Assembly (NCBI GenBank): GCA_965178125.1
Contig: OZ237770.1
Location: 434,001 to 498,000 of the forward strand
Reading direction: 5' to 3'
Source of the DNA: Bilabrum cf. latius
Taxonomy: Eukaryota
DNA: 64,000 nucleotides
The notes beneath the pieces are model-generated. The model was not told the origin of the DNA. It searched no databases and was given only the letters and a program-made list of their open reading frames with translations. Positions within the stretch are counted from its first letter, which is position 1; each line of letters opens with the position of its first letter. A program made the position numbers and the translations under genes. This document shows positions 5,694-57,862 of this stretch, in pieces.

Positions 5694-6105
5694 TCCGAGC
5701 ACTGGCAGCTGCGTGTGCAAGTGCGAGTGCGAGTGGTAGGGGACGCAGCGCTGACATGGCGCGCCCCGGGGATAGAACTGAAAGTATGGTGAGGTCATCG
5801 AAATGATACTCTTTCACAATAAAACAGGATTGGTTATTTTGCAGCAGAATAAGGCATAGCACAGCTCCAAGTAGCAGTTGCCATTCGTCAGTACCGACTT
5901 GTCCCGCAGCAACGGCGTATCCGATTGGACATCGCTACATATATGATGGTGCTCTACTGCAAATGTGCGGCTTTGATCTGGATTTTTGACATGTGCTTTG
6001 GCACTATCGTGGATTGCACCAGGATCGGGATCTGGTGCTGCTTGCAGCCTCTGAATCACCCTTTACCATCGTCACAGAAACGCTACGCGTCTTTCGGTGT
6101 GTCAA

Positions 6106-8869: not shown

Positions 8870-9345
8870 TATTGGAGGGCGAGGGCGAAGGCAAAGACTA
8901 GAACCAGCAGTGATAAGACCCGTTCTAGACCTTTATGCACATGGACCGGATGCTTCTCAAGCTCATGCAGGTGTGCAGTCAGGACGCTGGTGCGGTGCTC
9001 GAGCGCCACGAGGATGACAAGGGGGACGCCTCCCGGCTGGTGGAGGAGCGCAGGCTGGAGGTGGGGCGCGGAGAGAGCGGCGCTGCTGGCGATGGTTTCA
9101 GACAATCCGAGCACTGGCAGCTGCATATGTGCGGGTGCGGGTGCGGGTGCGGGTGCTGGTGCTGGTGCGCGTGAGGGTGCGTGTGCGTGCGAGTGCGAAG
9201 GGACGCAGCCCTGGCTGAAATGGCGTCTCCCGGGGACAACACTGAAAGTATGGTGAATTCGCCACGGTGATGCTCCTTCACATGAACAGGATTGGATATT
9301 TTGCAGCAGAAAAAGGCATCGCACAGCTCCGAGTTGCAGTGGCCA
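8870..9345 (+). pseudogene. Degenerate, internally deleted copy of GCH1 plus its 3' flank
   Basis: Resembles ~5113-5231 joined directly to ~5589-5885; catalytic core missing. Confidence 0.75.
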
Positions 9346-29032: not shown

Positions 29033-30243
29033 ATGGGCGTCCAGATTTCCATGGTAGCAGTGACTGCAACCTCGGGAATACTTGAATCAGCTTATAAGGA
29101 CTCCAACAATGAAGGCCTTGTAGTGATTGGACGGCCACTCAACCCAGGCGCGCCTGGAACCGCCTACGACACTGGCTTCGCGTGCGACTTGGACGGTGGG
29201 GCCGCCTTCGACGAGACGACGACTGAGAAGGCATGCACACGGATGGGCAAGAATATAAGGGGAGGTTACACCCTTTCCGGCCAGAGCGTAAACGGTGGCT
29301 CCTTCTCTGCGCGAGACGTCGTATGCGCAGCGAACCAGGGCTTCAATCCATCGCAAAGTGATACGAGCCGGCACTGCCAGTTGAATTCGGACGTATCGTC
29401 ATGCTCCAACACAAATGGCATTTTCATTTCGTGCCTCCCAAACTTTTCCGGGGCAGCGGCCGACTTCCTCCAGTTCAGGCTGGCAAACGCAGCGGGAGGC
29501 ACCACTGACCAAACGACCACGACCGGGACGGGCGTGCTTTAGGTGAGCGCAGCAGGCACGGACTACGCCCCCGTTTGCGATCAAGGTATCACACAAGCCA
29601 CGGTGACGAAACTCTGCAGCTTCATGGGAGTCCCGGACACTGGCACCTTCAGCACTGGCGTGACGACGGGCGGGTCATCCTCCTACGCTCTCAAAGACCT
29701 GGACTGCAGCGCGGCGAACAACGGCGGGGAGTGCGACTTCGATCGGAGACCGGGGTGCGGAGCAGATCAGGCCGTGACAATCACGTGCGCGCTGCCCAGT
29801 CCGAGTCCCAGCCCATCCGCGTCGGTGAGCGCCAGCCCGTCCACGTCGCTGAGCGCCAGCCCGTCCACGACGGTGAGCGCCAGCCCGTCCACGTCGGTGA
29901 GCGCCAGCCCGTCCACGTCGGTGAGCGCCAGCCCAACCACGTCGGTGAGTCCCAGCCCGTCCACGTCGGTGAGCGCCAGCCCAACCACGTCGGTGAGCGC
30001 CAGCCCATCCACCTCGGTGAGCGCCAGCCCGTCCACGTCAGTGAGCCCCAGCCCGTCCACGTCGGTGAGCGCCAGCCCATCCACGTCGGTGAGCCCCAGC
30101 CCGTCCACGTCGGTGAGCGCCAGCCCATCTTCATCCCCAGATGCAGCCGCGGCATCCCCCTCGCCCTCGGCTTCCAGCCTGCCCCTTCCCGCCCTCGCAC
30201 GGCGGGAGGAGCTGCCGGTGGACAGCCCCGCTCGGGCGACCAC
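29033..30243 (+). CDS. 5' part of host SRCR-like domain / mucin-stalk membrane protein, interrupted by the virophage (start uncertain)
   Basis: Two Cys-rich SRCR-like units (FRL...GVL*V...PVCD...KLC..MG...LKDLDC...C...C...AVTITC) followed by (SPSTSVSA)n; TAG at 29540 in frame. Confidence 0.75.
29798..30130 (+). repeat. 24-bp coding minisatellite (SPSTSVSA)n
   Basis: Tandem AGCCCGTCCACGTCGGTGAGCGCC-like units. Confidence 0.9.
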
Positions 30244-30273
30244 TGACGTAGTCCGAAAATAAAATAGGAATAT

Positions 30274-31246
30274 AATGTCATTATATTCCTATTTTATTTT
30301 CGGACTACGTCACGCATGCTTCACTTTTTTAATGTGTCCATATATTCACTTTTATTTTTTTATTTATTTATATTTTTTTGTATAATTAAATTTTTTATAA
30401 AATAATAATTTTGTTGTAATATATTGAATAATTATAATTCGTTACATGCTATACTTTTTATTTTTTTATAATATTTTCGCGGATTAAGATTAAATCAATT
30501 TATTGATTTTTATCAAAATTTATTTTTATTCGATAGAATGAAAATAATTAAATTCGAAGAATTTAATTTATAAATGGATCATCAAATAATATTTATTATA
30601 TTTCTATAATTTGTACAATTTGGCGGATGGCTCACATTTTAAAAAAAGTTCGCCAGAAAGCAGAAAATAAATTTATTTATTTTTTGTTTTCGTTTTTAAG
30701 AAATGGAAAAAGCATATTTATTTTATTATGGGAATTTTTAAGGGGTTAATCATTAAAATATTTTATTGCTTTATTTATGGCTCTATAATTTGAGTTCATG
30801 CATTGGGTCGCTCTCTTCGTTCGCTTAAAAGTGATATAGTAATAAAAGTTAGAAATAATATTATAATAATTTATTTTAATTAATTTACTGAGAAAGACAA
30901 TAAAATATTTTTTTTAAATTCTGTCACCAATTGAAAAAGTAATACAGATAACTAATAATATTAAATATTAATATATTAATGGAATATAGTAATATTTTCA
31001 GAATACTTGCCTATTATACTTTTTTTTAGAAGGGTGACAAAAGCGGTGACAAAACGTGATTTTCGAGGTCTCAGGAAATTTTTATTTTTAAAATCATATT
31101 TTCTGTAGAGTTCAGAATATTAATTTTGTCATCGGTTTTGTCATCAAAAAATTACAATTTATTAAAGGTGATGCTTAATTTTAAATTGGAGCTGTAATTT
31201 TGCATTTAACTCTTCGAATGTGTCATAAACATATATTTGAGAGGGT
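30274..31246 (+). repeat. Left terminal inverted repeat (~970 bp)
   Basis: Near-identical reverse complement of 56889-57855; the differences I noticed were homopolymer lengths and one substitution. Confidence 0.95.
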
Positions 31247-31549
31247 AAAATAAAAATATAAAATCAGGAACAAATCGCGACAAATTATATATTTTCTGAA
31301 TTGTCACGAGCTGGAGAACACAAAAATCATATTTATAAGTTACGTGCATTTTTATTTTAAAAGTTAAAAATTAAAAGCTATATAGATACACACTCAAAAG
31401 CATGTAGATATATATAAAACAATGTCTGGCTAACATGAACAACTCAAAAACAATTGACACATACACTCCAAGGCTATTAAATCCCTATATCGTATCTATA
31501 TAATTATACACAAGAAAAAAAAAAGCGAAAATAAAAACTATATATTTTT

Positions 31550-31553
31550 TCTA
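31550..31553 (+). promoter_or_regulatory. TCTA late-promoter motif (also at 32511, 34371, 49413, 50879, 52961, 53594, 56329 and before several minus-strand genes)
   Basis: AT-flanked TCTA 13-15 nt upstream of the ATG in eight plus-strand virophage genes; same core as the CroV/mavirus late promoter. Confidence 0.8.
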
Positions 31554-31566
31554 ACTATATAATATT

Positions 31567-32457
31567 ATGAGTCGTAATATTTATTTAACTGGACAATCCA
31601 GTGGAGCAAATGGGGCAGCTTCAATTGCTCGTGTAAATGTAAATAGACAAACAGATATTATAAGTGATACTACGGGATGGTTAATTTCAGTAGAACGCTT
31701 AATTATGAATAAAATTCTTCTACCCTTATTTGATCCAAACGCAAATAAACCCACTATATCATTTCAAAATATTAGTTCTGGTGTCGTAACTTCTGAGGTT
31801 GTTGATTTTTCGGCATTTGATGACCAAGACGGATATATTTATGATTATAGAGATGTCGCCTCGGCAATATCAAATACATTTAGTTCTTTATGTTCAACTT
31901 TAAGTATTGCAGATGTTCCCATAATGACATTTAATGTATCAACAAATAAATTTGAAATTGTTTCGGTTGGTGCTTTTAGATCTGCTTGGAAAATTGGATT
32001 TAATAATGATCTATTTACTTACATGCCATCTTTTAATTATGAATCTGTTTTATCATCTCCTTATTATATTGAACTGGCAGAAGACAGAGAAACACAATAT
32101 ACAAGCACACTTGAGCTTATGTCCCCTGTTTCTAGAATTGTAATTAAATCGAATCTACCAACTGAAAACGAACTTTTACCTCCCCCAATTAACCAATCTG
32201 ATGCAATCGCTGGATCTTCAGACAGTGCGGGTTTTCTAGTCGACTTTGATGTCCAACAGTCGAATAATCAGTCTGTTTCACTTATAAAATATAGTGCAAG
32301 AGATACTGACCATATATGGCACAATTTTAAAGAGTCTAGAAATATTAATTCATTCTATCTAGATTTTTATTGGTTTGACTATAATAATGTTGGTCATCCA
32401 ATCGCATTAAATAAAAATTCACAAATTGATATAAAATTATATTTTGTACAACAATAA
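31567..32457 (+). CDS. Virophage minor capsid (penton) protein
   Basis: 296-aa beta-rich protein directly upstream of MCP, mavirus-like order; C-terminal DFYWFD...IKLYF. Confidence 0.75.
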   Translation: MSRNIYLTGQSSGANGAASIARVNVNRQTDIISDTTGWLISVERLIMNKILLPLFDPNANKPTISFQNISSGVVTSEVVDFSAFDDQDGYIYDYRDVASAISNTFSSLCSTLSIADVPIMTFNVSTNKFEIVSVGAFRSAWKIGFNNDLFTYMPSFNYESVLSSPYYIELAEDRETQYTSTLELMSPVSRIVIKSNLPTENELLPPPINQSDAIAGSSDSAGFLVDFDVQQSNNQSVSLIKYSARDTDHIWHNFKESRNINSFYLDFYWFDYNNVGHPIALNKNSQIDIKLYFVQQ

Positions 32458-32527
32458 TAAAAATAATATAAGTTTTAATAATCAATTAGACAAAAATATA
32501 ATAATTTTTTTCTAATGTTAATTTATT

Positions 32528-34321
32528 ATGTCAAAATACTATAAAGATGTGGTCGTTATGATGCCATCAAACGAGAAATTTAAAGAGCCAAAAGACGTGA
32601 TGTTAGGGGCAAGAGCCTCTAATTCTGAGTCTATAAGACGTGTTATTCCAGCCAGTAATGGCTCACCTGATAAAGGTCAAGCAGGAACAATTGAATTTAA
32701 TTATAATTTCCCTAAGGGCAATGTGCAATCTGTGCCACAACTTCAGGCAGAGCTCACATTGACATTAAGAAAAATTAATAGCGAGGTGATTGCCGATAAT
32801 AAAGCGTTATTTGGTAAATTCGGAATTAGACAATTCGCATTAAATAGACTTATTGATAATGCCAAGGTAGAAATGAATGGGCACGAGTTCAGCTCCAGAC
32901 CATCACAAACAACAGAGTGTTTTGTAAATTCTCAACCATTGTCTCAATTGATGCGTTTGTCTGATGCTCCAGCTGGTCAATTTATGACTACCTACACAGA
33001 TAAATTTATTAATAACTCATTGCGTGAGGGTGCAAATGCTGTTGATACCGTTTCATCTAACGGGCTCGGGAATAACTGGACTTTCTCAGATGTTGCAGTT
33101 ACTGCAGATGGTGCAGGTTTTGTAAAAGTTGCATTAAAAGTTATCTATAGAGAGGTTATATTAGCTCAACCTTTCCAATACCATAACCCCAATCCAGTAC
33201 CCTTTAGAAACCTAAAGGACTTCAAGTGTCAATTTGACATTAAGGCATTGACTGGCTTGGTTGGTGACTTTTTAGTTGCTGACACAACAGCAGTTGACGC
33301 TACAACCACCGTTGAATGTACATCTTCTAAATATAGTTTACTTGTGCACACATGGAATCCAAGCTTAAACCCAATCATTCCTGAAGAAATCGTATATAAT
33401 GCACCCGAAGTAACTAAGTTGGTTTCTCAATCTCAAAATATTGTATCTGGTGGTACTGTTACCCAAAGAACAATAGAAACAAGCACATTTGTACTTAATA
33501 GTGTACCTACTGCACTTTTCATATATGCTAAAAGAGAAAAACTAACCGATGGTTTAAGTTATGGACAACCTGATGAATACGCATCAATTAAAAACCTTTC
33601 TATCGGAACAGCCCAGAAAGAAGACATCTTTAGTAACTACACGCAAAGCCAACTTTATGAAATGTCAGCGTCCAACGGATACAACGAAAGGTACGCAAAA
33701 TTTTCCCAGCAACAAGTGGGTGATGGTATATTCGGGCTTGGTTCAGTGCTAATTATTAAGCCTTCAGACATTCCTGCGGCATCTCAACAAGCCTTTATTA
33801 GTCACGCAAACGAGACATTTACTATGAAAGTTAAAACTCTATTGGATTGTCCAGTAACTGGAAATTATACACTTAATGTTCTAGCATATTATGACGATCT
33901 TGTTTTATTCAATGAAGGTGACAATGGCACTTATAAATCTATGAGACCTCTCATTTCTGGTGAAGTATTATCTAAAGCACCCGTTGTATACTCTGAAAAT
34001 ACCGCTCAAGATAACCATATTGTCGGTGGTTTCTCCTTTAGAGACCTAGGAAACAGCGTTTGGTCAGGCCTTACATGGCTTGGTCGTCAATTACAAAGAC
34101 CAGAGGTTAAAGCAGTATCTAGAACCCTAAGAAATTCAGGTCTTGCCCCTCAGGTAGCCGACGGCTCAGCAATTGGCGATTTTGTTTCTAGATTTGGTTA
34201 TGGAAAAGGTAAGAAAACCACAAAGAAAGGGGGTGATTTACTAAACATTGGTTCAGGCAAAAGCAAAGGAGGTAAAAAGCTAAGCAAAGCCCAATTAAAA
34301 AAAATGCTTGACCAAATGTAA
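32528..34321 (+). CDS. Virophage major capsid protein
   Basis: 597 aa, beta-rich, size and position as mavirus MCP; diglycine site IVGG followed by a basic C-terminal tail. Confidence 0.85.
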   Translation: MSKYYKDVVVMMPSNEKFKEPKDVMLGARASNSESIRRVIPASNGSPDKGQAGTIEFNYNFPKGNVQSVPQLQAELTLTLRKINSEVIADNKALFGKFGIRQFALNRLIDNAKVEMNGHEFSSRPSQTTECFVNSQPLSQLMRLSDAPAGQFMTTYTDKFINNSLREGANAVDTVSSNGLGNNWTFSDVAVTADGAGFVKVALKVIYREVILAQPFQYHNPNPVPFRNLKDFKCQFDIKALTGLVGDFLVADTTAVDATTTVECTSSKYSLLVHTWNPSLNPIIPEEIVYNAPEVTKLVSQSQNIVSGGTVTQRTIETSTFVLNSVPTALFIYAKREKLTDGLSYGQPDEYASIKNLSIGTAQKEDIFSNYTQSQLYEMSASNGYNERYAKFSQQQVGDGIFGLGSVLIIKPSDIPAASQQAFISHANETFTMKVKTLLDCPVTGNYTLNVLAYYDDLVLFNEGDNGTYKSMRPLISGEVLSKAPVVYSENTAQDNHIVGGFSFRDLGNSVWSGLTWLGRQLQRPEVKAVSRTLRNSGLAPQVADGSAIGDFVSRFGYGKGKKTTKKGGDLLNIGSGKSKGGKKLSKAQLKKMLDQM

Positions 34322-34387: not shown

Positions 34388-35566
34388 ATGACTCCTCCAC
34401 TTTCGAAAGAACAAAGGGAAATTTTAAGTAATATATATTATGATGAACATTTTTTATTTGGTCGTGATAAATTATATGAATTAGTTAAATCAAGAGGTTA
34501 CGATATAAGCAGACGACAAATAATGAACTGGTTAAAATCTCAAGAAAACTATCAATTATACAAACCAATTAAACAAAAGAAAACAGTTCAAGCAACAGTA
34601 TTAAAAAGACCTTATGAGCAGTTCGCCGTGGATTTAGTAAATGTCCAAGATATCGAAAAAAATAATAAAAAGTACTTGTTAACTGGCATAGACCTTTTTA
34701 GTAAAGAGGGTTTCGCATTTCCTATTAACAATAAGAAAAAAGAAACCGTATCAAAAGCATTAAAATTAATGATTGGACAATTAAATAAAAAACCATCAAT
34801 TATTAGATCTGATAATGGGAGTGAATTTAAAAATTCGGTTATGACTAAAATGTTAAAAAAAGAAGGAATAAAACAAGTATTCAGTAATCCCTATTCACCC
34901 GAGTCAAACGGTGGTATTGAACGTTTTAATGGTACTCTAAAACGCATGATCAATAAGTCTTTACAGCTTAATAAAGATTGGGTTAATCTTATTTGGGATC
35001 TTGTAGATGCTTATAATAATTCTAAATCAAGAATAACTAAATTTACGCCAAATGAAATTATTAAAAATAAAAAGTTATGGGAACAGGTTTATAAAAATAC
35101 TAGAAAAGAAGCAAAAAATAAATTAGTGAATGAAAGTCATATATTAAAAAAAGGGGATAAAGTAAGAATGGCAAACCTTGAGGATAATTTAAACAGAGGT
35201 CAAAATTTCAGTAAAAAAATATATGAAATTCAAGAAGTATACAAACCAAAGAAAACTTATAGTGTGCCTTCATATAAAATTAAAGGATTAAAAGGTAGAT
35301 ATTATAATGAAGATCTGCAAAAAATTAAATATGTAATGAATGAGCAAAAAGAAGAACAAAAATGGGTTATTTCAAAATTACTTAAACCTACATACAGAGA
35401 TGGCGAACCTAGTTATTATGTTCTATGGAAGGGTTATAAAACGCCTACAATAGAGCCAAGAAAGAATTTAATGGAAGATGTACCAAAATTAGTTAGAAAT
35501 TATGAACGCCTTTATAACGTTAAATGGTATCCAAAAACTGAAACCTTTGACTTTGATTTAAGATGA
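34388..35566 (+). CDS. rve (retroviral-type) integrase with C-terminal chromodomain-like region
   Basis: DDE motifs FAVDL, RSDNGSEF, NGGIERFNGTLK; C-terminal YYVLWKGY..PTIEP..NL. Confidence 0.93.
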   Translation: MTPPLSKEQREILSNIYYDEHFLFGRDKLYELVKSRGYDISRRQIMNWLKSQENYQLYKPIKQKKTVQATVLKRPYEQFAVDLVNVQDIEKNNKKYLLTGIDLFSKEGFAFPINNKKKETVSKALKLMIGQLNKKPSIIRSDNGSEFKNSVMTKMLKKEGIKQVFSNPYSPESNGGIERFNGTLKRMINKSLQLNKDWVNLIWDLVDAYNNSKSRITKFTPNEIIKNKKLWEQVYKNTRKEAKNKLVNESHILKKGDKVRMANLEDNLNRGQNFSKKIYEIQEVYKPKKTYSVPSYKIKGLKGRYYNEDLQKIKYVMNEQKEEQKWVISKLLKPTYRDGEPSYYVLWKGYKTPTIEPRKNLMEDVPKLVRNYERLYNVKWYPKTETFDFDLR

Positions 35567-36499
35567 ATTCAATTTATTCATGCAATTTAATAATATTTTT
35601 ATTTGTTCCTGTTTTGACTTATCATTAATCATTGATAATATGGCGTCTTCTGGTTTTTTATCATTATTATTAGATTGACAATATTTAGTATATGTTAACA
35701 TTTGAGTGCTTGGTGAATTTCCCATAACACGGGCTAAGTCTTCTCTTTCATCATTAGTAAATAATGTTCCTTTATTCATTTTCTCACTAATATAAACATT
35801 TCTAAAATCATTAATAGAAACTTTATTTTTAAAAATCTTGTTTAATATTTTTGTTATACTGGATTGGTCATTTTTTTTATTTGGATTCTTAAATGGAGAT
35901 AAAACATATTCACATTTATATTTTTCTTTAAAATGCTTACAGTAATATATTATACTATCTGGAACTTTAATATATTTGACACCATTTGACTTTTTAGTTT
36001 TATGATCGTATATGTGGAGCTCTTTTTCATCTAGTAATAATTTATTTTCTTCTTCGTGGTTGTCAGTATCTAATATTTTCGTTGTTAACCATTCCGTGAC
36101 TCTAAGAGGTGGCATATATGCGTAAAGAGATAAAAGCCATGCTCTATATTCATTCATTTTATTATTATTGCCTCCTTCAATTTCTTTTAATTTCTTTTCA
36201 ATATCAAAATATTTAAAACCTTTGATATGTTCCTTGGCATTTTTATTATAATATTTGTTGTTTTTTTTCAATTCAATTAATTGTTTATTTAATGTTTCAT
36301 CATAATGTTTATTTATTGCCTTACAAACTGTTATATATTTATGTAAAAAACTAGATTGGTTACTTTGTGGTACATCTTTTAAGTATTCCATTATTGGTTT
36401 ATCTTGTTTCTCTATTTTTTCATAGATTCTAATATAATCATTTATGCTTTTTTCGGCAAGATTGGGCTTTATATTTTGTATTTTTTCATAAAAAGACAT
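35558..36499 (-). CDS. Virophage tyrosine recombinase
   Basis: PPLR, HKTKK, INDFRNVYIS, LARVMGNS...TY in catalytic order. Confidence 0.8.
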   Translation of the reverse strand: MSFYEKIQNIKPNLAEKSINDYIRIYEKIEKQDKPIMEYLKDVPQSNQSSFLHKYITVCKAINKHYDETLNKQLIELKKNNKYYNKNAKEHIKGFKYFDIEKKLKEIEGGNNNKMNEYRAWLLSLYAYMPPLRVTEWLTTKILDTDNHEEENKLLLDEKELHIYDHKTKKSNGVKYIKVPDSIIYYCKHFKEKYKCEYVLSPFKNPNKKNDQSSITKILNKIFKNKVSINDFRNVYISEKMNKGTLFTNDEREDLARVMGNSPSTQMLTYTKYCQSNNNDKKPEDAILSMINDKSKQEQIKILLNCMNKLNSS

Positions 36500-37023
36500 T
36501 CTTTATATAATATATGCTTATTGATGCCAGAGTGTACGCGCAACCTAGTCTCGTTAACAATCAGACATGGCAAGACCTGACAAAGCTGTGCCTGTGCGCG
36601 ACCCTTGACCGGACTGACCGGGGCTGGGAAGAGCACGTGCACTACTCCGCCGAGGAGGAGGGGGTTGGGAGGGTGGGCAAAAATTACCCAATCTCCGCCC
36701 CTCTCCTGAACACAGAGAGGGTATGCGCGTCATCGCAAGCAATCCGTTGGCTTGGTCGCACCTTCCCGGTCGCAACCGCCATCGGAACCCAACGAGACGT
36801 TCACGCGCTCCCACTCTGGCATCAACACCGAACCCCATCCGGCGTTAGGATCATGATGCCAGAGTGTACGCGCAACCTAGTCTCGTTAACAATCAGACAT
36901 GGCAAGACCTGACAAAGCTGTGCCTGTGCGCGACCCTTGACCGGACTGACCGGGGCTGGGAAGAGCACGTGCACTACTCCGCCAAATCTTACCGCCATGT
37001 CTTGTACGCTGCGGCTGTGTGGC

Positions 37024-38082
37024 TCACTCCAAGTTCAGCCGCAGCGCGCTGGCCAGCACCCACACTGGCCTGTTCAAATCGAGGCTCCTGCCGCCGAGCT
37101 CCAGAGGAGGCAAACCTTCCCTGACGCTCCGCAAGTACACCTCGCATGCAGATGCCGACTTCCATCTGCCAAATCGCCTAATGACCTCGAAGGCGACCCC
37201 AGCACGGTCCAAACACATCACTGCCGCGATGCGGATGGAATGTCCGTGCACCGCTCCTGCAACTTCTCGTGAGCAGAAGCTGCGGAGCGCCCGTACTACC
37301 TGCGCCTTGACGATCGGCTTCGTGTTCGCCACGAAGACTGGCCCTGACGTGGGGCAGCTGAGCGCCAGCTACCGGGCGTAGTCTTCGTCTGCGCCTGCAG
37401 TTGGGGCGTGGCTCGCTGCTGCCCACGCCACGAAGGCTCGCACGCCGCAGAACCTGCTGCCTGTGACTGCCCATCGTCCGGCTCTGCAATGGACTGCGAT
37501 GGGCTCTGCGGCTTGGATGGAGAACTTGGCTGGGCCGTCGGCTTTGTGGAGGCCCAGGCGGATGGCAACACCATGGATGCGTCCGTCTCGCGTGATGAAC
37601 TGCACTTGCTGCCATTGGAGGCCGGCTTGTCGTCTGGACGCACCGACGAGCTCTCCCAGCCGGAGGCCCCCACAGAAGCAGAGACAGACAGCTGTCCGAG
37701 CAGCCTACTCTGTTGTGCTGCAACCGGCTGTCGAGAAGCACCGTCGGATTGCGCGGAGTGGGGCTGAAGATCGACGCAACGGGTGCGCCGATGGCGATGC
37801 TTTGTGGTAGTACCGGAGGATGCTGTCGAGCTAGCTTGACCGTGGGACGCCGCACGCACCTGTGGACTCGATGACGACTCGCTAGGCATTTCTGGTGTAT
37901 GTAGCGATGGTGCCGCCACTGAGAGGCGAACATTCCCCTAAGAAGACTGCGAATCTCGAGAGCGCTGCATTGAGCCTGAACGCGAAGAGTCTGCGAGCTG
38001 CTGGAAGATGCCCGTCCATGAAACTGCGGTCGATGTCGTACCACGTGAGGAAGTTGTCGAAGTGCCCCCACGCCGTGCGCAA
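37024..38082 (-). CDS. Retrotransposon tyrosine recombinase (4 in-frame TAG; start uncertain, overlaps the pol frame)
   Basis: CFCGGLRLGEL, HSIRIAA, RFGRWKS...VY in one frame via TAG at 37882, 37831, 37705, 37369; ends TGA. Confidence 0.88.
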
Positions 38083-41000
38083 CCCACTGAGTCCAGAGTG
38101 GCCACCAGCGTGAAATGGTCGTGCTTGTACAAGGTGTTCCAGATCGGCGTGGGACAGTCGACCTGATACACCGCGTCCAGGTGCGTGTATGCCTCCTGTG
38201 AGCCGCGGCTCAAAGCGTCCGCAACGACGTTGTCCTCGCCAGGAATGTGTTTCACGTGAATCTGCACATCTTGCGTTGTCTGCAGTACGAAGATAGGGCG
38301 AAGTAAGGCTGCCATGATGTGGCTCTTGGGTCTGCCGTAGCGTATCAGCTACACGGAAGCATCATTATCACACCACAAACGCACCACACGTCCACGCAGG
38401 TGCTGTCGCCAATGCGCCAGTGCCAACAAACATGTTGCAAGTTCTGCCGCCGCTACATCCTTCGCCTCTAGGCGATGCGGCCAAGTGCCCTGGATGCCGG
38501 TGTGCGAAGTGATGTTGCCGTCCTTGTCGTGGAGAAGCAGCTCGGCGCCGTAGCCTGTCACCGACGCATCAGTGCGAAGGATGGGACAGTCAATGGTGCC
38601 CCGCATCGGAAAGCTGCGCCCGCCTTTGCGCTGGATAGCCACCTGGAATCCCTCGAGGATTTCCCCAACTGTGAAGCCACCCTTGGACACAAAGGAGGTG
38701 GGGACCCACACCTCACCTGGTCGTGACCGGCTGGCCTACTTGTGAAGGGCCCAGCCCTTGGCGTCATACAGGGGACGTAGAGCACCGCGCATACCATAAA
38801 GTGCGCCCGACAGGAAGGACAACTTGCCGACCAAGGTCTCAAAGCTAGACAGCAGCATCCCCTTCGTCGTGAGTGCCTCGTGCAGTCTGCGCAGGACGTC
38901 GTTGGCCTTGTCCTTAGGGCACCGCACCTCGTGTTTGATCAAGTCGTAGGTGAGGCCCAAGTACTCGAACACCGGGGCTGGGGCCCCTTGCTTCAATGCT
39001 TTCGAGATGCTGACGGGGAAGTTTGTGGAGTCCAGCTGCCCCATGGCTCGAATTGCCCATGCATCGACTTCGTGATCTCCGCCGAGGCAGGCAAAGTCAT
39101 CTACAAACACCTCATTTTCGACCTACCAATGGCGGGACTAGTCTTGGGCCGTCTTGACATGTCCCGTTGTCGTGCTAGCGGCAGGCGGGGTGGACGTTGC
39201 TGACGAGTTCGCCTGGGGCGCCTGGTCCGTCGTGCTGGATTGGGCGTTGGCGTGCTGCTGCTTCCGGCGTCGTTGCTTCTGCTTGTGTCTCCGTCCGGGT
39301 CGCATGGCCCTGCCAATGGACTGCTCCTCGAGGGCTTGGGCCAAAGCCGAACTGATCGTAGTTGCGAAGGCGGGAGATGATGAGCTGCCCATAGAGAGCC
39401 TGAAATCTTGCACGATGCGCCCGTCGGGCAGCTTGATCAGGTTGTATTGGAGATCCTCCACTGCCACCGGCAGGACCCGAAAGTACGAGGAAATGTCGAC
39501 GACGTATCCGCTGGCACGCTTGGGGCAGGATCGAACTGCTGCGGCTGCCGAGCGCAGCACGTCCATGCTGCTCGTCTGCTGCACAGGCGTGGCTGCACTG
39601 TAGTCGATGGCCTTGTTCAGACCGGTACGCTGGCCGTTCACCTTGAGTGAGGAGTCCTGAAGGAACCGTAGCTTTGTCGAGTCCTTCTTGGGGATCACCA
39701 GCGGCCGGGCCCGGGCTGTGTCGAAATCTTTGGGTGACACGAAGTCACGCTCGCCAGCCCGCATGGAGCGCCCGATCTCGCAGGCGATCTCCCACTTTTC
39801 TTCCGGAGACAGCTTACGGTCCTTGTAGTCTAGATCGTGCTCTTTGGGCACCTCGTCCACGATGGCTAGGGGGCAACCATAGTTCAGTGCTGCCAGTACA
39901 CGCTCGACTCGTGGGAGGGCTTTAAACTCGGCAAGGGACGGGGCCTTCCTCGGTGTGCGGCCGCCAAACAGAACCTCCCGCCGGGTCCGCAGTGTTGCAG
40001 TCTAGCGAGGCACCTTGTCGAAGTACTTGCGTGGCGTGAATGCCAGCGGGTCGTCGTGAACCTTCAGGTGGAGCCGCTCACGGTCCCACGTCGCAGCTGG
40101 AGCCTCCACGAATTCGCCGGGACAGTCTCTGGTACGCTGGTGATCGTCCTTTCGCTGTATGAAGTCCTCGACGGAGGGTGCTGTCGTCCCTGCCCACTCA
40201 TGGCTTGGATCCGGAGCTGGATATGCCCAGTCAACGAATGCTGGAGAGATGTCCGTCCTACCTGGCAGCCTCGTGGATGACGCCGTGGGCGGCCGCTGCG
40301 GTCGCTTAGGGCGCGCTAGGGCCACCAGGACTGGGTGAAGCGCGGGCGTTGACGTGACAGGTGGTGTGGAAGCAGCACACGCGTCCGATGTGGTGGTAGT
40401 CTGCGTACGCCCCTGCGGCAGTGTTGGTGTTGGAGTGCTGGGCTGGCTCTGACGTGACGTACCTCGTGGGGGGGGGTCAGGTGAAGGCTCCTTGGACTTC
40501 CTGGTGGAACCCCCGTCCTGCCGGTCCGCACGCTGGTGCTGGCCACCTTGCTGGCCTGCGCCGCCACGTCCACGGCCTCGACGGTGTCGACCTCCGCCAC
40601 GATCGGCACTGGGCTGGTCGCTGTCACCCCCGCTGCGCCTGGAGCCTCCACTGCCCCCGCCTCCACTGCCCCGGCCTCCACTGCCCCCGCGAGGGTCGAA
40701 GTGACGGGACAGTGCTGCTCGACGGGACGGCGCCTGCATGTCAGCCTGGACTCCCTGTAGCAGTCCGCGCACGAGGCCAGGTTCGCCTGATCTGCATGCC
40801 TCAGTGGCCCACGGATGCAGCAATTGTAGGAGACGCATGCAGTCGCCAGAAGAGCACGAAGGAATCTCATTCCCAACAAGGTCACGAATCTCAACGTCAC
40901 AGCGTTCGCCTGTATGGCGCCAAGCATGGGAGGAGAGCATCTCAAAGGCTGAACTTCCGCGTGGTATCACACACACAGCGGCAAACACCACCTCTAGTCG

Positions 41001-42929
41001 GGACGCCGATGCAGATGATGCCCCGGAAGCACTAACCAAACGAAGAAAATCATTGCGAACCTGCCCCAGGGTTTTCCAATCGGGCACTAGTGATGCTGGA
41101 CACGACCACGAGCTGCTGCCCTGCGGCAACCAGGCCGGCAAGGACGCCGTCGAATGCGCGCAAGCAGCGCGCACGAGCACACAGCCTAAAGCAAAGGAAA
41201 TAGCCGAGTAAATAGTGCATAGTAACTCGCTAGATGGCACCTACTTTTCTCGTCCGCCTGCAGCAGACGACTCCGAGTTGGACGCATCAAACTTCCCAAA
41301 ACTGGCATTGCTCATCGGCAGAGCTGCATGAAGCCGGCTCGTGAACGAGAAAATAGCCGATTCAATCTTGGCTCTCGTCACGGCCTGACCAAACAGGGCA
41401 CGGGCCAGTTCTGCAGCGAAATCGCGGCCGCTAGCGTCCAAATGAAGCGCGTCAGCCTAGCAAAACCGCGGCATGAACGCGGATTGGCGAAAGATCGAGG
41501 TCAACGTTGCCAAGAAATCATCAGAAAACCAATTCTGCATTCGAATTGCAGCGATTGAAGGTGCAGAGGCCTCACGCTACAAAATCTCCACTGGTTGCGA
41601 GCGAACGACCGCGGAGTCCACTGCCGTGCCTGCGCCCGGTGAAACTGGGTCAATTGAAGACGCAGGCTGCGGTGAGGCAGAAGATGACACAGGAGGTTCA
41701 CGGGGTGGCTGATGAGCGGGTGTAGCGTCGACCGGTGGCGGGGATGAGTGCATCGAGGCTGCTAGTCGGTGCGAGAAGTACCATTGCAATTCCACGTGGG
41801 CGGAGAGGTGCGACAGCAGCTCTTCCTGGCGCAGAGTCGGAATGCTGTGCCACAGCGCAAACAGGCGTAGATGCAGAATTGTCGCTGGGTCGGCCGTTCC
41901 CCGCAGCGTCGTGGAGTGCAACACTGCCCGTTGGAGATCCCCAGGAAGGCGGCCCCAGACCGCGTCAAGCTAGCGGCTGGTGCCCGGAGTCACGCCGGGG
42001 GAGTCGTAAGCCGGAGACACACGAGGAAGAAGAAGCTGAGGGCCTGCCGGGCCCGTTGACCGTGATGCTGCACTGCTGAGCGCCTCCGCGAGCACTGTCG
42101 GATCGCCGAAGTCCCGAGTGCCTGGCCTACCGGGGAGCCTGCCCGAGGCAGGTGGAGGTTGGTGCCGCGGGGGTGAAGACGTTGAGAAGTTGGGCTGTCC
42201 GCTGCGCTGGGTATCTGCTGCTGTCCCCGGGGGCCCTCGGTTCGGGGACTCGTGCAGGTGGGCCCGCCCGCCTCGCGCGAGCGGGGCCTGCCGCGTCGTC
42301 GAAGAGCCTGGCCGCGCCCGCAAGGGCGAAATTCCGCGGCTTGTCCTGGTGGCACTCTACGCCGCTCGGTCGCGTCCAGGTGAAGCATGGATGGCGGCGC
42401 CGAAGTCGAGGCGTCCGGGTGGCCGATGCTGTCCGCGAAGAGGAGCGGTCCGCCGGCCCGTCGGTAGTGAACTCAGGGACCATGGAGACTCGATTGAAGA
42501 AGGAGCCTCTGGAGATTGCTGAACAGGATGAAGATGTACTTGTCCTGCGAGTCGCTCAGGCTGTTGCCGTCGAGGAGAGCTCGGCGACGCCGGCAGAAGC
42601 AGCCGTGCACCGAGAGTCGTTAGCGTCCCATTTGACACGAACTTGGCGAGAGCGGTGCTCTTGACAGCATTAATGGACCGTGATGCCGTGAAGGACTGCT
42701 TTGATGAGTACCTGTCGAGCAAGTAGCACAGGAACCCCGCATCGTGTGCACGTTGAAGATCGGGATCGCAAAAATTACCCAATCTCCGCCCCTCTCCTGA
42801 ACACAGAGAGGGTATGCGCGTCATCGCAAGCAATCCGTTGGCTTGGTCGCACCTTCCCGGTCGCAACCGCCATCGGAACCCAACGAGACGTTCACGCGCT
42901 CCCACTCTGGCATCAACACCGAACCCCAT
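37218..42929 (-). CDS. Retrotransposon gag-like/RT/RNase H polyprotein frame (12 in-frame TAG; exact ends uncertain)
   Basis: One frame from ATG 42929 to TGA 37218 with only TAG; RT motifs VIPKKDS.KLRFLQD, VDISSYF, LSMGSSSSP, FVDDF, YLG; RNase H motifs TDAS..GYG, AEL, CDN, HIPGEDNVVADALSR. Confidence 0.85.
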
Positions 42930-42984
42930 CCGGCGTTAGGATCAATAAAAAATATTGTTTAAATGCGTTTTAAACTGTTAATAT

Positions 42985-43641
42985 TTATGTTTTTTTTGTG
43001 TGGCAAGAATAACAGCGATAATAATTAGAATCCTTTTTTATTGTGTACTTATTACAATCAATGCATTTTTCTTTTCCTGTTTTCTTTGTCATGTAACAAT
43101 CAAAACATCTTAATTTATATTGACTTTTCGGTATCCAATCCCTACAATCTAGACATTTTTGGTTATATTTAAACATCATATTATTTTCTTGGTGTTTATC
43201 ACTTTGACAATGTGTCACATATGAACCTCTTTTTAATACAGAATCGCATTTTTCACATTTTACGAGCATGGTGTTTTTGTGCACTGATGAATTCATTGGA
43301 AATAGCCCAGTTATGCATGTACTACCAATCATAAAATATTTTTCTGGTTTTTGCTTTTCAAATACTAAATAAGGATATTTTAATTGCTTACCACATACAC
43401 AAAAATATGTGGTCTCCATTCCTTGCTCATTTTTTTTTGATAAAACCAAGTTTCGTTTGTAATTATAGCATTGCTTGTAAAGTTTTTTAGCCATGCTCTT
43501 AATTTCTTTTTCAGATGTCATATTATTGTAATTAATAGAATCGAAATTTTCAGTATCAAATTTTTTATCTGAATTTTTCTCAATATAATCTAAACACTTT
43601 TTGAGACAAATAGTTTTATTATCTTTTGCTTTTTTACACAT
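42985..43641 (-). CDS. Cys-rich zinc-ribbon protein
   Basis: CVCGK, IGSTCI and multiple CxxC pairs. Confidence 0.65.
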   Translation of the reverse strand: MCKKAKDNKTICLKKCLDYIEKNSDKKFDTENFDSINYNNMTSEKEIKSMAKKLYKQCYNYKRNLVLSKKNEQGMETTYFCVCGKQLKYPYLVFEKQKPEKYFMIGSTCITGLFPMNSSVHKNTMLVKCEKCDSVLKRGSYVTHCQSDKHQENNMMFKYNQKCLDCRDWIPKSQYKLRCFDCYMTKKTGKEKCIDCNKYTIKKDSNYYRCYSCHTKKT

Positions 43642-46631: not shown

Positions 46632-46769
46632 CTATATTACTTTTTTTTGGAAAGGGTGACAAAAGCGGTGACAAAACGTGATTTTTGAGGTCTCAGAAAA
46701 TTTTATTTTTTGAAATCATATTTTTATTGGACTTGGAAATTCTGATTTTGTCACCGCTTTTGTCACCCT
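46632..46769. repeat. Internal copy of a TIR sub-segment with perfect 24-bp inverted arms
   Basis: AGGGTGACAAAAGCGGTGACAAAA (46653-46676) and its reverse complement (46746-46769); resembles TIR segment ~31011-31145. Confidence 0.9.
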
Positions 46770-46777
46770 AAAATATT

Positions 46778-47341
46778 TTAATGAAAAGCCATTGTGACGA
46801 TTTCATCTATTGAATGTCTATTTTTAAGTTTCTTTTTTGCCTCTTGCATTAGTTGATTATATTGATCGTTTGTAAGATCGGCATAGTGTACGCGGTTTAA
46901 TGAGTGCCTTCCACAACTCGCAATATGAGAACCTTCTCCTTGATGCTTATATGGTGAATAATCCACGTCATAACCGCTATCGAGTAAACGCCTAATTAAT
47001 GTATTATTAGATTCTTGATATAAATTCAAATCTGCATATTTTTTTTGCCCAACATCGGGGAGTCCGCCGTAACTATCATAAAAATATATTGTATTTCCCT
47101 TTTTTGTTAAAGCTACATAATGCCCCGATGTTGCATTTCCTTGTTTAATCATTGGATAAAATACAATTAATTTATTATCTCCTTGAAATAATGATTCAAT
47201 TGATGGAGAATTTATAATATCGTCATATAATACAACACGAGGAGGTGGACCTTTAGTGTGTGGGTGTTTATTCCATAGTTCTTTTAATTCTTGAGGACTA
47301 AGATATGTCCCAACAAGTTGTTTTAATTTTTCTCTATTCAT
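46778..47341 (-). CDS. Virion maturation cysteine protease (adenain-like)
   Basis: SGHYV, FYDSYG, HQ...SCGRH catalytic H/D/Q/C order. Confidence 0.88.
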   Translation of the reverse strand: MNREKLKQLVGTYLSPQELKELWNKHPHTKGPPPRVVLYDDIINSPSIESLFQGDNKLIVFYPMIKQGNATSGHYVALTKKGNTIYFYDSYGGLPDVGQKKYADLNLYQESNNTLIRRLLDSGYDVDYSPYKHQGEGSHIASCGRHSLNRVHYADLTNDQYNQLMQEAKKKLKNRHSIDEIVTMAFH

Positions 47342-47379: not shown

Positions 47380-48441
47380 TTAAATTTTTATCGCTTCCTT
47401 TTGACTTATCATATAGCCTATATCTGGGTTTATACTAATCCATCTAGATTTTTTCAATGCTAGTTTAACCCTTTTAATTTGTTCTTTATTGAATCCTAAA
47501 TAAGTTCTTAATAAATAATTACGTTCATGGTCTGTACCTTTACTAAAAAATACATAATCGGTCGTTTCAATTTTAATTAACTTCATATGTGCACCATCTG
47601 ACCCTTTGTGATTACATATAATTAAATTAGTCTTAGTGTGTCTCCCCTTGGTTAATAGGGTGTCCCTTAAAAATTCAATCTTTCCAATATCTGGGTTATT
47701 TTCGTAATCATCAAATAAAACTAATGAATCTTGAAATATAGCATCTCTTGCTTCTTGATCTATTTTAAACTCAAATTTATCTTTGCCTTTTCCGTCTGGT
47801 TTCATATCATGTAACATTAATTCTAACTTCATTAGCATTTCTGGGTCATCTGCATACATTTTCTTTTTGTATTTAAATTTAATCTTTGCTTTTTCATACT
47901 CTTTTTTTGCGTCTTCATGACTCACATTTTCACCAACTAATGAATTAATATCTAAATATTTTACTTTTCCAAATTTAGAATCTTTGACATCCGTGATCAC
48001 ATAAATCTTTTTAATTCCAAATTTTCGTGACATTTCCATTATTTCGGTTGAAAAATATGACTTTCCAGAACCAGACTTACCATTTAAAAAGAATACGAAT
48101 CTATTAAATGAGTCATCTTCAGTATGACCTAGTGAATACGGAATAACTCTAAACATTGATTTGTCTTTTATCTCTTCACTGTTGAATTTTTGGGCTTCTT
48201 CTGTTCCATTATATAAATTTATTAATTCTTGCTTTTTCTGTTCTTTAGCTTTCTTTGATCTTACCGCATGAGTTCCAAAGATTGCGTATAATTGGTCATC
48301 CGTTATATCTTCGGGCTCTAATTCTTTATTTTTACATTCATTGTCATAATATAATACTTTATTTTTGCTTTGCTGGTTATTACCTGTATATTTACGGTAT
48401 GCAATGGGTATTGAATCATCTCCTCCGCTGTAACTAAACAT
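47380..48441 (-). CDS. FtsK/HerA-type (A32-like) genome packaging ATPase
   Basis: Walker A GKSGSGKS, Walker B LVLFDD, KGRH...IICNH. Confidence 0.9.
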   Translation of the reverse strand: MFSYSGGDDSIPIAYRKYTGNNQQSKNKVLYYDNECKNKELEPEDITDDQLYAIFGTHAVRSKKAKEQKKQELINLYNGTEEAQKFNSEEIKDKSMFRVIPYSLGHTEDDSFNRFVFFLNGKSGSGKSYFSTEIMEMSRKFGIKKIYVITDVKDSKFGKVKYLDINSLVGENVSHEDAKKEYEKAKIKFKYKKKMYADDPEMLMKLELMLHDMKPDGKGKDKFEFKIDQEARDAIFQDSLVLFDDYENNPDIGKIEFLRDTLLTKGRHTKTNLIICNHKGSDGAHMKLIKIETTDYVFFSKGTDHERNYLLRTYLGFNKEQIKRVKLALKKSRWISINPDIGYMISQKEAIKI

Positions 48442-48534: not shown

Positions 48535-49383
48535 TTATTTAATTAAACGCTTGAATGCCTTAATTTCGTTTTTAACGTCATTTGTGATATAAGAATGTAA
48601 TTTTTTCATAACTTCTTTTTGTATTTTACTAATATTTTTCATTTTAAAATCTGATTTCTTAAGATCCAAATGAAACATATTCTTTAATCTGACCATTAAA
48701 TCCTCCTTTATGTTGTTCATCACAAAGTTTTTAGTTGCCGTTGTATCTCGTACATTTTTAAGTGCTTCAAGTCTGGCATTAGTAAGATATAAAAAACCCA
48801 CATTGTCAGAACTTAACAAACTATTAATTTCTTCCATTTTATCGTCGTATCCTGTTCTTCGGTATATCTCACGCAATCTCTTAAGGGCTTTATAATATTT
48901 TCCTTCTTTTTCCAATTTCATGGCGTCTTCTATTAAATCTTCTGTTATTTCATCTTTAGTTTTTCCCATAATTGAATCACCAAAATCATAAATTATCGTA
49001 ACCTCTTCATAATACCCATTAGTAAATACTATTAAATCAAGTTTAACCCATTTTTTATCTTGTTTAATATACTTTGGGTTTTCTAGTTCATCAGCAAGTA
49101 ATTTGATAGCTTTTCTTTGTGTTCCTGCTTTCTTTTTACCTATTTTAAGTTCACTAACATCTATGTGATCACCAATGTCAATTAGAAAGCTGAATAGTTC
49201 ACGTAAAAGCAGTTTATATTGTTTCATTTCTAATTTCATATATAAATCGAGATCAGAAGCAAAAAATGAAATAGGGAAAGAACCATTTAATAACATATCT
49301 GCATCTTTTATTAACATAAGATCTTTAAACAATGCGGAATGGTCAGTATTAAATAGTTTGATGGTTTTATTGTTAATTTCCAT
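48535..49383 (-). CDS. Putative Pol-beta-superfamily nucleotidyltransferase-fold protein
   Basis: LNGSF...ASDLDL and later KLDL; start placed at ATG 49383, downstream of a TCTA motif. Confidence 0.5.
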   Translation of the reverse strand: MEINNKTIKLFNTDHSALFKDLMLIKDADMLLNGSFPISFFASDLDLYMKLEMKQYKLLLRELFSFLIDIGDHIDVSELKIGKKKAGTQRKAIKLLADELENPKYIKQDKKWVKLDLIVFTNGYYEEVTIIYDFGDSIMGKTKDEITEDLIEDAMKLEKEGKYYKALKRLREIYRRTGYDDKMEEINSLLSSDNVGFLYLTNARLEALKNVRDTTATKNFVMNNIKEDLMVRLKNMFHLDLKKSDFKMKNISKIQKEVMKKLHSYITNDVKNEIKAFKRLIK

Positions 49384-49431
49384 TATATAGAATAACATTA
49401 GATTAATTTTTTTCTAGTGTAAATATATTAT

Positions 49432-52977: not shown

Positions 52978-53550
52978 ATGAGTATAAGCAATTTATTAAC
53001 TTCAAATAACCTAGACTTAAAAGCTAATTCTATTGATGCAATAGATGTTAAAAAGAAAGGTCAAGCTTTGACATTTAATGGATATCACTTTGTCCAAAAT
53101 AGAGGAAATGGAACTACTCCTATAACTTTAAATGCTCCAGGAAATATTTTCGATGGATCAACTTTTACCGTTGCAGATACGGCATTATCTATCATGGGTG
53201 GAACGTACAATATGCCAATAGACAACACTTATAATTGTATCATTAAATGTAATATGTCATTTATTAATACGAATACTTCAGCTGTCAGATCTGCAGGTAT
53301 TGCCTTTCAATTTCAGAATGCCTCAGATGATACATGGGATATTAACCCTTCTAATTGTCCCGTGATGTGGCATGTTATAAATCCTGAATCTGCCCAAACA
53401 ATACAATTAGTACATTCATTAGATTCAGATCATGGATATAAAGCAGTACGTTTAATGTTTGCTGGTGAGAATTCAATTGATATTGATTATAGCTCAAATA
53501 ATCCAACTAGAATATGTTATTGCACTTTAGAACGTTTCTATAGTTTGTAA
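52978..53550 (+). CDS. Putative short fiber/spike protein
   Basis: Shares N-terminal MSISNLLxxNNLDLxA with the upstream protein. Confidence 0.55.
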   Translation: MSISNLLTSNNLDLKANSIDAIDVKKKGQALTFNGYHFVQNRGNGTTPITLNAPGNIFDGSTFTVADTALSIMGGTYNMPIDNTYNCIIKCNMSFINTNTSAVRSAGIAFQFQNASDDTWDINPSNCPVMWHVINPESAQTIQLVHSLDSDHGYKAVRLMFAGENSIDIDYSSNNPTRICYCTLERFYSL

Positions 53551-57855: not shown

Positions 57856-57862
57856 CAACCAC

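Follow-up and report, generated by a model that had tools for sequence, protein, structure and literature searches.

A perfect terminal palindrome at one end of a virophage provirus in Bilabrum cf. latius and its possible origin in a fold-back genome end

The provirus, its genes and a nested retrotransposon

The window analysed here is a stretch of 64,000 nt from Bilabrum cf. latius (GCA_965178125.1, contig OZ237770.1, positions 434,001 to 498,000, forward strand), and all positions given below are counted within it. Its GC content is about 55 to 67%, except at 30.2 to 36.5 kb and at 43 to 57.9 kb, where it is about 27 to 35%. An AT-rich virophage provirus occupies positions 30244 to 57857. 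It measures 27.6 kb, or about 21.2 kb without an insert that is nested in it. The features of an integrated virophage, namely a virophage-type double jelly-roll major capsid protein (MCP), an rve integrase, terminal inverted repeats (TIRs) and a short target-site duplication (TSD), are present. Their coordinates are collected in Table 1.

Table 1. Features of the provirus and of its junctions with the host, in order along the window
Feature	Position	Strand	Basis or remark
Left TSD copy, ACCAC	30239-30243		Same pentamer abuts both element ends
Left TIR including the palindromic extension	30244-31246	+	Inverted-repeat pairs, TIR alignment
Palindrome, outer arm	30244-30277	+	Begins with TG; extra relative to the right end, without a partner there (TIR alignment)
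Palindrome, centre base T	30278		Also the centre of the natural palindrome AATG-T-CATT
Palindrome, inner arm	30279-30312	+	First 34 nt common to both TIRs
Iteron-like module, left TIR	31033-31145		Two direct and two inverted G[G/A]TGACAAAA copies around an AT-rich spacer
Virophage major capsid protein, 597 aa	32528-34321	+	PF22031 MCP_V20_C, E 1.7e-13, above the curated cut-off
rve-family integrase, 392 aa	34388-35566	+	PF00665, E 2.8e-16; PF13683, E 3.6e-6
Element's own tyrosine recombinase, 313 aa, Cre/Xer type	35558-36499	-	Relatives, conserved residues, fold
GC-rich Ngaro-like retrotransposon, 6.4 kb, nested in the virophage	36522-42944	-	Split direct repeats, RT/RNase H traces
D5-type primase-helicase, 833 aa	43931-46432	-	DUF5906, E 3.2e-14
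Iteron-like module, third copy	46655-46767		Just upstream of the primase-helicase gene
Right TIR	56889-57857	-	Inverted-repeat pairs, TIR alignment
Iteron-like module, right TIR	56990-57102		Motif matches
Single arm, right end	57817-57850	+	Sequence equals the left outer arm (k-mer table)
Right-end terminal 7 nt, ACATTCA	57851-57857	+	A-CATT matches the palindrome, the final CA does not
Right TSD copy, ACCAC	57858-57862		Directly abuts the right element end

Seventeen ORFs of at least 100 aa were scanned against Pfam at E ≤ 0.01, and 11 of those without a firm match were rescanned at E ≤ 5. Clear family matches were obtained in four ORFs, which encode the virophage capsid protein, the rve integrase, the D5-type primase-helicase and a DUF5754 protein. 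The capsid protein has four relatives in a large protein collection (best identity 63%) and the primase-helicase has six (best 73%). The integrase, whose tail is weakly chromodomain-like (Chromo, E 0.0012, below the Pfam cut-off), is presumed to have catalysed the joining of both CA-3′ ends to host DNA. The profile of the primase-helicase matches the PDB ‘Primase’ chains 6k9e and 6k9c (E 6.2e-14, residues 475 to 628), and the model of the full-length protein is poor (pLDDT 47.6). This D5-type protein is the only replication protein recognised among the 17 ORFs.

A DNA polymerase B domain, as expected of a protein-primed polymerase (pPolB), was found in none of the 17 ORFs of at least 100 aa at E ≤ 0.01. 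For 16 of them either the scan at E ≤ 5 gave the same result or a family match is present; the other, a 208-aa ORF at 56347-56973 covered by the scan at E ≤ 0.01 only, has a weak AAA_14 match (E 0.0022, below the Pfam cut-off). None of the non-coding gaps is long enough for a pPolB gene. Likewise, the 17 ORFs gave no family match to a Rep/HUH nickase and, in Pfam, none to a hairpin resolvase. No Pfam family above cut-off identified a penton, a packaging ATPase or a maturation protease. Position 31567-32457 may encode the penton, judging from its place before the MCP gene, and 46778-47341 a putative protease, judging from an H...C pattern; a 353-aa ORF at 47380-48441 has weak P-loop matches (E 0.02 to 0.1). 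Searches of the PDB by phmmer with the ORFs at 37178-38209 (minus strand), 48535-49398 (minus strand) and 50898-52946 (plus strand) returned nothing below E 0.03. Besides, an iteron-like motif has 16 matches where 4.1 are expected, a number reached by 0 of 100 shuffles, and the modules composed of it are candidates for an origin or a promoter.

The tyrosine recombinase has no Pfam match of its own. A search of 1.84 billion representatives gave 389 relatives at E ≤ 0.001, and an alignment of 64 sequences shows no variation at R133, K167 and R233 and next to none at columns 261 (mostly H) and 270 (Y). PF00589 is matched by 15 of these 64 family members, and the recombinase profile finds the XerC-like entry 4a8e in the PDB (E 1.8e-5). 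An AlphaFold model computed from the 64-sequence alignment reached a pLDDT of 92.7 and a pTM of 0.83. The top Foldseek matches of this model were XerA (E 1.1e-5), Tre/Cre (TMq 0.58 to 0.60), XerD, Tn1549 Int and lambda Int; the protelomerase TelA (4e10) stood at rank 49 (E 0.04, TMq 0.37). VIA-align gave Z scores of 14.8 for Cre/Tre (268 residues aligned, 1 to 294), 13.4 for XerA, 12.9 for Tn1549 Int and about 10 for type IB topoisomerases, with XerH and lambda Int also among the fold matches and no protelomerase among the 50 entries listed. Protelomerases belong to the tyrosine recombinase superfamily, and those that are known have extra domains, for which 313 aa leave no room. Going by the model, the protein is a compact two-domain enzyme of the Cre/Xer type; hairpin formation by it would be possible, but nothing points there.

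The GC-rich insert has split direct repeats that are 100% identical (36522-36651 with 36854-36983, and 36677-36853 with 42768-42944). The layout A1-[ORFs]-B1-A2-B2 and an RT/RNase H ORF, which are features of Ngaro elements of the DIRS order, are present. Its long minus-strand frame matches RVT_3 (E 6.8e-6) when TAG is read through and contains an FVDD motif, and no tyrosine recombinase of the insert's own was recognised by Pfam at E ≤ 5 or by phmmer against the PDB. The insert lies 22 nt upstream of the start codon of the virophage recombinase, is a separate element and plays no part in the end structure. In the host DNA, 16 long frames with TAG read as Q contain one short glycosyltransferase match and no other Pfam domain.

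A perfect palindrome at the left tip and an unlike right end

The left tip of the provirus (30244-30312) is a perfect 34-1-34 palindrome of 69 bp, with arms that are complementary at 34 of 34 positions and separated by 1 nt. Folded as single-stranded DNA it reaches −35.9 kcal/mol, against −6.05 ± 2.06 kcal/mol in shuffles (z = −14.5; equalled by 0 of 200 shuffles). Within the 64-kb window it is the longest perfect palindrome with a short loop, the runner-up having arms of 10 bp, and in the shuffled element (n = 30) the longest perfect-palindrome arms measure 8 to 10 bp.

Besides the terminal difference, the two TIRs of about 970 bp are set apart by 1 substitution and two 3-nt indels in their alignment, which also makes the left end longer than the right by a net 28 nt. 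Read from the outside inward, the right end consists of TG followed by AATGTCATTAT..., and the left end of 30 extra bases followed by the same AATGTCATTAT.... A palindrome inside the TIR tip with an adjoining TSD is true of the left end only. Both termini read 5′-TG...CA-3′ (TGA...TCA) and adjoin a perfect 5-bp TSD. TG...CA is the classical terminus of rve-type elements. The presence of TG...CA at both ends together with the perfect 5-bp TSD implies the concerted, rve-type insertion of a single linear molecule whose two tips were unlike.

The right end finishes with CA, where a shortened palindrome would give AT. Because of this mismatch the right end is something other than the left end cut short, and both ends cannot stem from one perfect hairpin. 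The right end keeps a natural 4-1-4 palindrome, AATG-T-CATT, and the centre of this small palindrome is the centre of the 69-bp palindrome. A different boundary was also considered, with a 7-bp TSD containing one mismatch (CGACCAC and CAACCAC), which would place the end of the right tip at ...CATT, in agreement with the palindrome; single-mismatch TSDs have been recorded for EMALEs. We ranked this reading below the 5-bp one, since only the latter gives TG..CA at both ends.

These results agree with a preceding sequence-only reading of the locus, which had described a perfect 69-bp hairpin with 34-bp arms around a T at the left end, a right end composed of one arm plus ACATTCA, TGA...TCA beside the TSD at both ends, and a left end longer by 28 nt. 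[quoted passage not shown]

Copies in the reads and relatives elsewhere

Four public runs were used, all from one sample and one study; they are perhaps the assembly's own source and are therefore not independent of it. They contain 80 to 83% of the sampled words of 29244-32244. Contigs built from each run with a k=31 graph were compared with the window at 30100-33100, and the results below hold among the contigs listed. The arms, the TIR and a palindromic centre are covered by run contigs. The inner arm in the window's version lies in a contig that matches 30284-30520 with no differences in four of four runs. The mean word depth in the bin 30201-30301 is above that of the host flank in three of the four runs and about equal to it in X3.

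One contig, present in runs X2 and X3, spans the centre and agrees with the window from 30257 to 30299; a loose end of 9 nt extends it on either side, TTGTAGTCC before 30257 and GGACTACAA behind 30299. Each loose end is the reverse complement of the other, and neither agrees with the arms in the window. The contig forms a second perfect palindrome, which shares the centre of the first and shows its differences in both arms in mirror image; its 61 nt are the maximum for a palindrome in a k=31 graph. Copying of one arm from the other would be expected to mirror differences in this way. This observation suggests that another copy of the element also has a terminal palindrome. Furthermore, variant TIR contigs with other letters and with loose ends at 30452, 30825 and 31031 show that the sample contains diverged copies of the element.

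The host-flank contig, of 144 nt, stops exactly at 30243 in all four runs, where the k-mers of the window would extend it to 30273. We infer from this that the sequence also continues in another way beyond the TSD, for which an empty allele is the simplest explanation; filled and empty alleles would then occur side by side. Considering the near-identity of the TIRs and these apparent filled and empty alleles, the insertion looks young and its ends are probably original.

The arm, the inner arm and the centre of the palindrome have 0 exact matches in the viral contigs scanned and 0 in the genome contigs. A search of the viral contigs with the single capsid protein found no relatives; the capsid alignment led to 3 distant viral loci (28 to 30% identity) and to 7 short metagenome contigs of 1.2 to 6.8 kb. 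Inverted repeats at the contig ends were present in none of six of these capsid-relative loci (L001, L002, L003, L008, L009 and L010); L004 to L007 are too short. The primase-helicase gave no relatives in the viral contigs, either as a single protein or as an alignment, and neither the capsid nor the primase-helicase searches found relatives with readable genome ends.

Possible origin of the palindrome and comparison with known systems

How virophages and PLVs without pPolB replicate their ends is an open question, on which only a hypothesis is in print (10.64898/2026.07.28.741278). Since the present element has no pPolB and only a D5-type primase-helicase, its genome tips could not be completed by protein priming. 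We find it plausible, though by no means assured, that the integrase captured one end, folded back and self-primed, in its extended form and the other end in a short form. The 69-bp palindrome would then record, as duplex DNA, a genome end that had folded back into a hairpin. The small palindrome AATG-T-CATT, two bases from the 3′ end, would allow a single-stranded 3′ tail to snap back. At the short end, CATT in the 3′ strand ...AATATAATGACATTCA would pair with AATG, and the CA left unpaired would be shed; this terminal CA lies outside the palindrome, and the need to remove it as a 2-nt flap before extension tells against this reading. Extension along the strand itself would yield ...CATTATATTCC..., which is exactly the left end, centred on T30278. 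In this family the snap-back may occur regularly, whether it is part of end replication or often arises as a by-product of it.

The rve integrase would have joined a CA-3′ near each tip to host cuts staggered by 5 bp. On the left this would be the CA 34 nt beyond the fold-back axis, in the extended form, and on the right the short end's own CA. In another version, in which a site-specific nick 34 nt from the axis and transfer of the hairpin would take place as a rule, the palindromic end would be regular and the right end exceptional. The snap-back, its extension, its regular occurrence, the choice of CA and the decision as to which end is normal are all steps that we infer. A related idea had been put forward in the sequence-only reading, in which a fold-back terminus was opened asymmetrically before rve integration. 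That idea fits the anatomy and is supported by the second mirrored palindrome and by the Halocafeteria preprint discussed below; it is unsupported in one part, as the right end is not simply a shortened palindrome (CA instead of AT). More broadly, and held only tentatively, virophages without pPolB may complete their linear genomes by self-priming hairpin ends, in the manner of a rolling hairpin or of a poxvirus, and the provirus may have kept both end states, extended on the left and short and opened on the right, the integrase taking whichever CA-3′ was at hand.

The palindrome might instead be the scar of a one-off accident without a role in replication, left when, at or shortly before this one integration, a resected left end folded on a 4-nt microhomology or the template was switched during repair. 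Fold-back events at broken ends generally sit on microhomology, and the axis here lies on one of 4+1+4; moreover, the right end resembles a normal short terminus with its own CA. The palindrome is found at only one end of this copy, which suits an accident and counts against a regularly folded-back end. We nevertheless consider an accident rather unlikely, because the reads contain a second, diverged perfect palindrome with the same centre, and because the intact 5-bp TSD and the TG..CA ends argue for ordinary gap repair at the junction. In its accessible part, a preprint of 2026 on Halocafeteria seosinensis names accidental annealing at single-strand breaks as the alternative to its own proposal, but there, in another protist, terminal palindromes recur across several subtypes of virophages and PLVs and track the absence of pPolB (10.64898/2026.07.28.741278).

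Covalently closed hairpin telomeres, made on the palindrome by the tyrosine recombinase acting as a protelomerase, appear far less probable than an accident. The element does encode its own member of the superfamily that includes the protelomerases, and a closed hairpin that received a nick at the CA, 34 nt away from its tip, and was then joined to the host would give exactly the left end. The sequence-only reading had accordingly assigned the recombinase a possible role as telomere resolvase, a role that finds no echo in the predicted structure, with its matches to Cre/Tre, XerA, Tn1549 Int, XerH and lambda Int and with TelA so far down the Foldseek ranking. The small size of the protein tells against such a role too, and a right end reading ...CATTCA is not obtainable from a perfect hairpin. 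In the virophages of C. burkhardae and Halocafeteria, as far as the accessible parts of these sources describe it, the role ascribed to a recombinase that accompanies an rve integrase is insertion into the genomes of giant viruses (PMC8547959; 10.64898/2026.07.28.741278). An assembly artefact, in which the assembler or chimeric reads would have created a false inverted duplication, is hardly credible. Palindromes are a known artefact of long reads, and among the contigs listed the window's outer arm joined to the centre is absent, as is the right-end junction, an absence from which nothing is drawn. Against an artefact, the palindrome is internal to its contig, between host DNA and the TIR and beside a perfect TSD, contigs built independently of the assembler cover the arms, one of them crossing a palindromic centre, and the word depth around the tip exceeds that of the host flank in three of the four runs.

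The provirus belongs with the recently described pPolB-less endogenous virophages that bear terminal palindromes and does not represent a new principle. In the accessible text of the Halocafeteria preprint, terminal palindromes are reported beside TSDs in pPolB-less endogenous virophages and PLVs, preferentially accompany replication genes other than pPolB, and are proposed to reflect hairpin-primed replication by analogy with parvoviruses and poxviruses (10.64898/2026.07.28.741278). The element studied here shares with the elements described in that text its integrated virophage type, TIRs, rve integrase, palindromes at the TIR tip by the TSD and non-pPolB replication genes; some Halocafeteria virophages also have a tyrosine recombinase. 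The host here has about 60% GC and a Ngaro-like retrotransposon, whereas the same text gives 47% GC and no Ngaro for Halocafeteria. The example depicted there has 52 nt and is drawn flanking both TIRs, in contrast to 69 bp at one end here; one-ended cases may exist there too. Furthermore, unlike the elements presented in that text, the opposite end here is short, its last 2 nt are off the palindrome, and the axis is pinned to the natural 9-bp palindrome. The provirus is a clean and apparently young example in a different host, in which a base-perfect fold-back end lies beside an intact TSD and the unlike opposite end fixes the axis on that 9-bp palindrome; the reads hint that a diverged copy shares the structure with mirrored changes. 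With the ends of this provirus, the hairpin-priming hypothesis becomes concretely testable.

The Cafeteria burkhardae EMALEs, as far as the accessible part of their description goes, resemble the present element in being AT-rich proviruses in a GC-rich genome with nested Ngaro elements (PMC8547959). Their TIRs, of about 0.2 to 2.3 kb, and their short TSDs, predominantly of 3 to 5 bp, are comparable with those found here. An rve integrase, a tyrosine recombinase and a long primase-helicase without pPolB are combined in the mid-GC EMALE types and in the element here; the low-GC types described there have pPolB, in contrast to the low-GC element here (PMC8547959). The main text of the EMALE paper (PMC8547959) makes no mention of a hairpin or palindrome, and a preprint on a Tetraselmis PLV (10.1101/2025.10.09.676808) none of a hairpin, palindrome, termini, concatemer or telomere. 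Judged by titles and abstracts, none of the papers listed in full-text searches, apart from the Halocafeteria preprint, links virophage or polinton termini with hairpins and palindromes. In the accessible parts of two further studies, new primase-helicase versions always come with changed TIRs (PMC10945749, 2024 PNAS), and inverted repeats, primase-helicase and tyrosine recombinase form an ‘end module’ of PLVs, for which dimer resolution by the recombinase has been suggested (PMC11296320).

The resemblance to the rolling-hairpin ends of parvoviruses and to poxvirus telomeres is one of logic only. In the rolling-hairpin scheme a terminal palindrome has arms that are copies of each other, with turn-around or extended forms and mirrored mutations; the arms are perfect here, and the second palindrome in the reads has mirrored differences. 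Parvoviruses, in contrast, have single-stranded DNA genomes and an HUH Rep nickase, whereas no such protein was found in the 17 ORFs here and the palindrome is at one end only. With the telomeres of poxviruses, asfarviruses and chloroviruses the element shares a linear double-stranded DNA genome, a D5-type primase-helicase and, in the reading favoured here, fold-back ends that would become palindromic junctions during replication. The hairpins of these viruses, closed covalently and paired incompletely, are resolved by a RuvC-like resolvase at defined sequences, whereas the end described here is seen in its integrated form. A giant-virus helper could supply the resolution enzymes.

Protelomerase systems (TelN/TelK, TelA and ResT) are similar in combining an enzyme of the tyrosine recombinase superfamily with a palindromic target. 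In contrast to them, the recombinase here is compact and Cre/Xer-like, and the palindrome lies at the tip of the provirus instead of at an internal site of resolution. Off-centre opening of a hairpin leaves P nucleotides at the joint in V(D)J recombination and in hAT and Transib transposition. Such additions comprise a few nucleotides on flanking or coding DNA and involve a RAG- or hAT-type transposase, whereas the extension here comprises 34 nt of the element's own end, next to a retroviral-type integrase.

The insertion site and its host flank

Contigs from four public read runs, all from one sample and perhaps the source of the assembly, were compared with window positions 30100-33100. In all four runs, the contig of the left host flank (30100-30243) stopped at exactly the last base of the ACCAC TSD. 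The k-mers of the window itself would carry this contig 30 nt further, into the AT-rich virophage provirus (30244-57857). Probably, an empty allele is also present in the sample; in that case, the virophage insertion would be young or polymorphic.

The virophage directly follows a 24-bp tandem array (29731-30201), whose 14 in-register copies are 62 to 92% identical to the reference copy. Since this array lies within open frames, the virophage has probably inserted into a host coding region that is repetitive.

Other repeats occur in the host DNA of the window. Tandem arrays with periods of 131 bp and 86 bp occupy 60655-61868 and 62833-63992, and a sequence of roughly 300 bp is present in two dispersed copies (5588-5883 and 9000-9345) that are 75 to 90% identical.

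TAG codons in the nested retrotransposon

The long frame of the Ngaro-like element, a GC-rich retrotransposon nested in the virophage, spans 1666 codons on the minus strand (37938-42935) and holds 11 in-frame stops, every one of them TAG; neither a TGA or TAA stop nor a frameshift was found in it. The split direct repeats of the element are 100% identical. Among the 17 virophage ORFs, the stop codon is TAA in 15, TGA in 2, and TAG in none. TAG may be a sense codon in the host, or the TAG codons may have been produced by mutation bias. A Pfam scan of 16 long host frames, with TAG read as Q, found no domains except one short glycosyltransferase match, which may or may not span a TAG.

A repeated iteron-like module

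The virophage carries three copies of an iteron-like module. In each, the motif G[G/A]TGACAAAA occurs twice in direct and twice in inverted orientation, 12 bp apart, on either side of a spacer that is AT-rich and some 70 bp long. The motif has 16 matches against 4.1 expected, and none of 100 shuffles gave at least 16.

Positions of the iteron-like module in the virophage
Location	Window position
Left terminal inverted repeat (TIR)	31033-31145
Just upstream of the primase-helicase gene	46655-46767
Right TIR	56990-57102

The module may serve as a replication origin or as a shared promoter. It is consistent with the observation in PMC10945749 that a new version of the primase-helicase is always accompanied by an altered TIR.

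Further virophage ORFs

Two neighboring ORFs, 50898-52946 (682 aa) and 52978-53550 (190 aa), share near-identical first 16 residues (MSISNLL..NNLDL.A). The 682-aa product, with many N, T, S, and G residues, looks fibre-like and has a weak PDB match to a phage tail fibre (E 0.039). Between the primase-helicase and recombinase genes lies a cysteine-rich ORF of 218 aa (42985-43641, minus strand), which had no family match; its product has many CxxC pairs and probably binds zinc.
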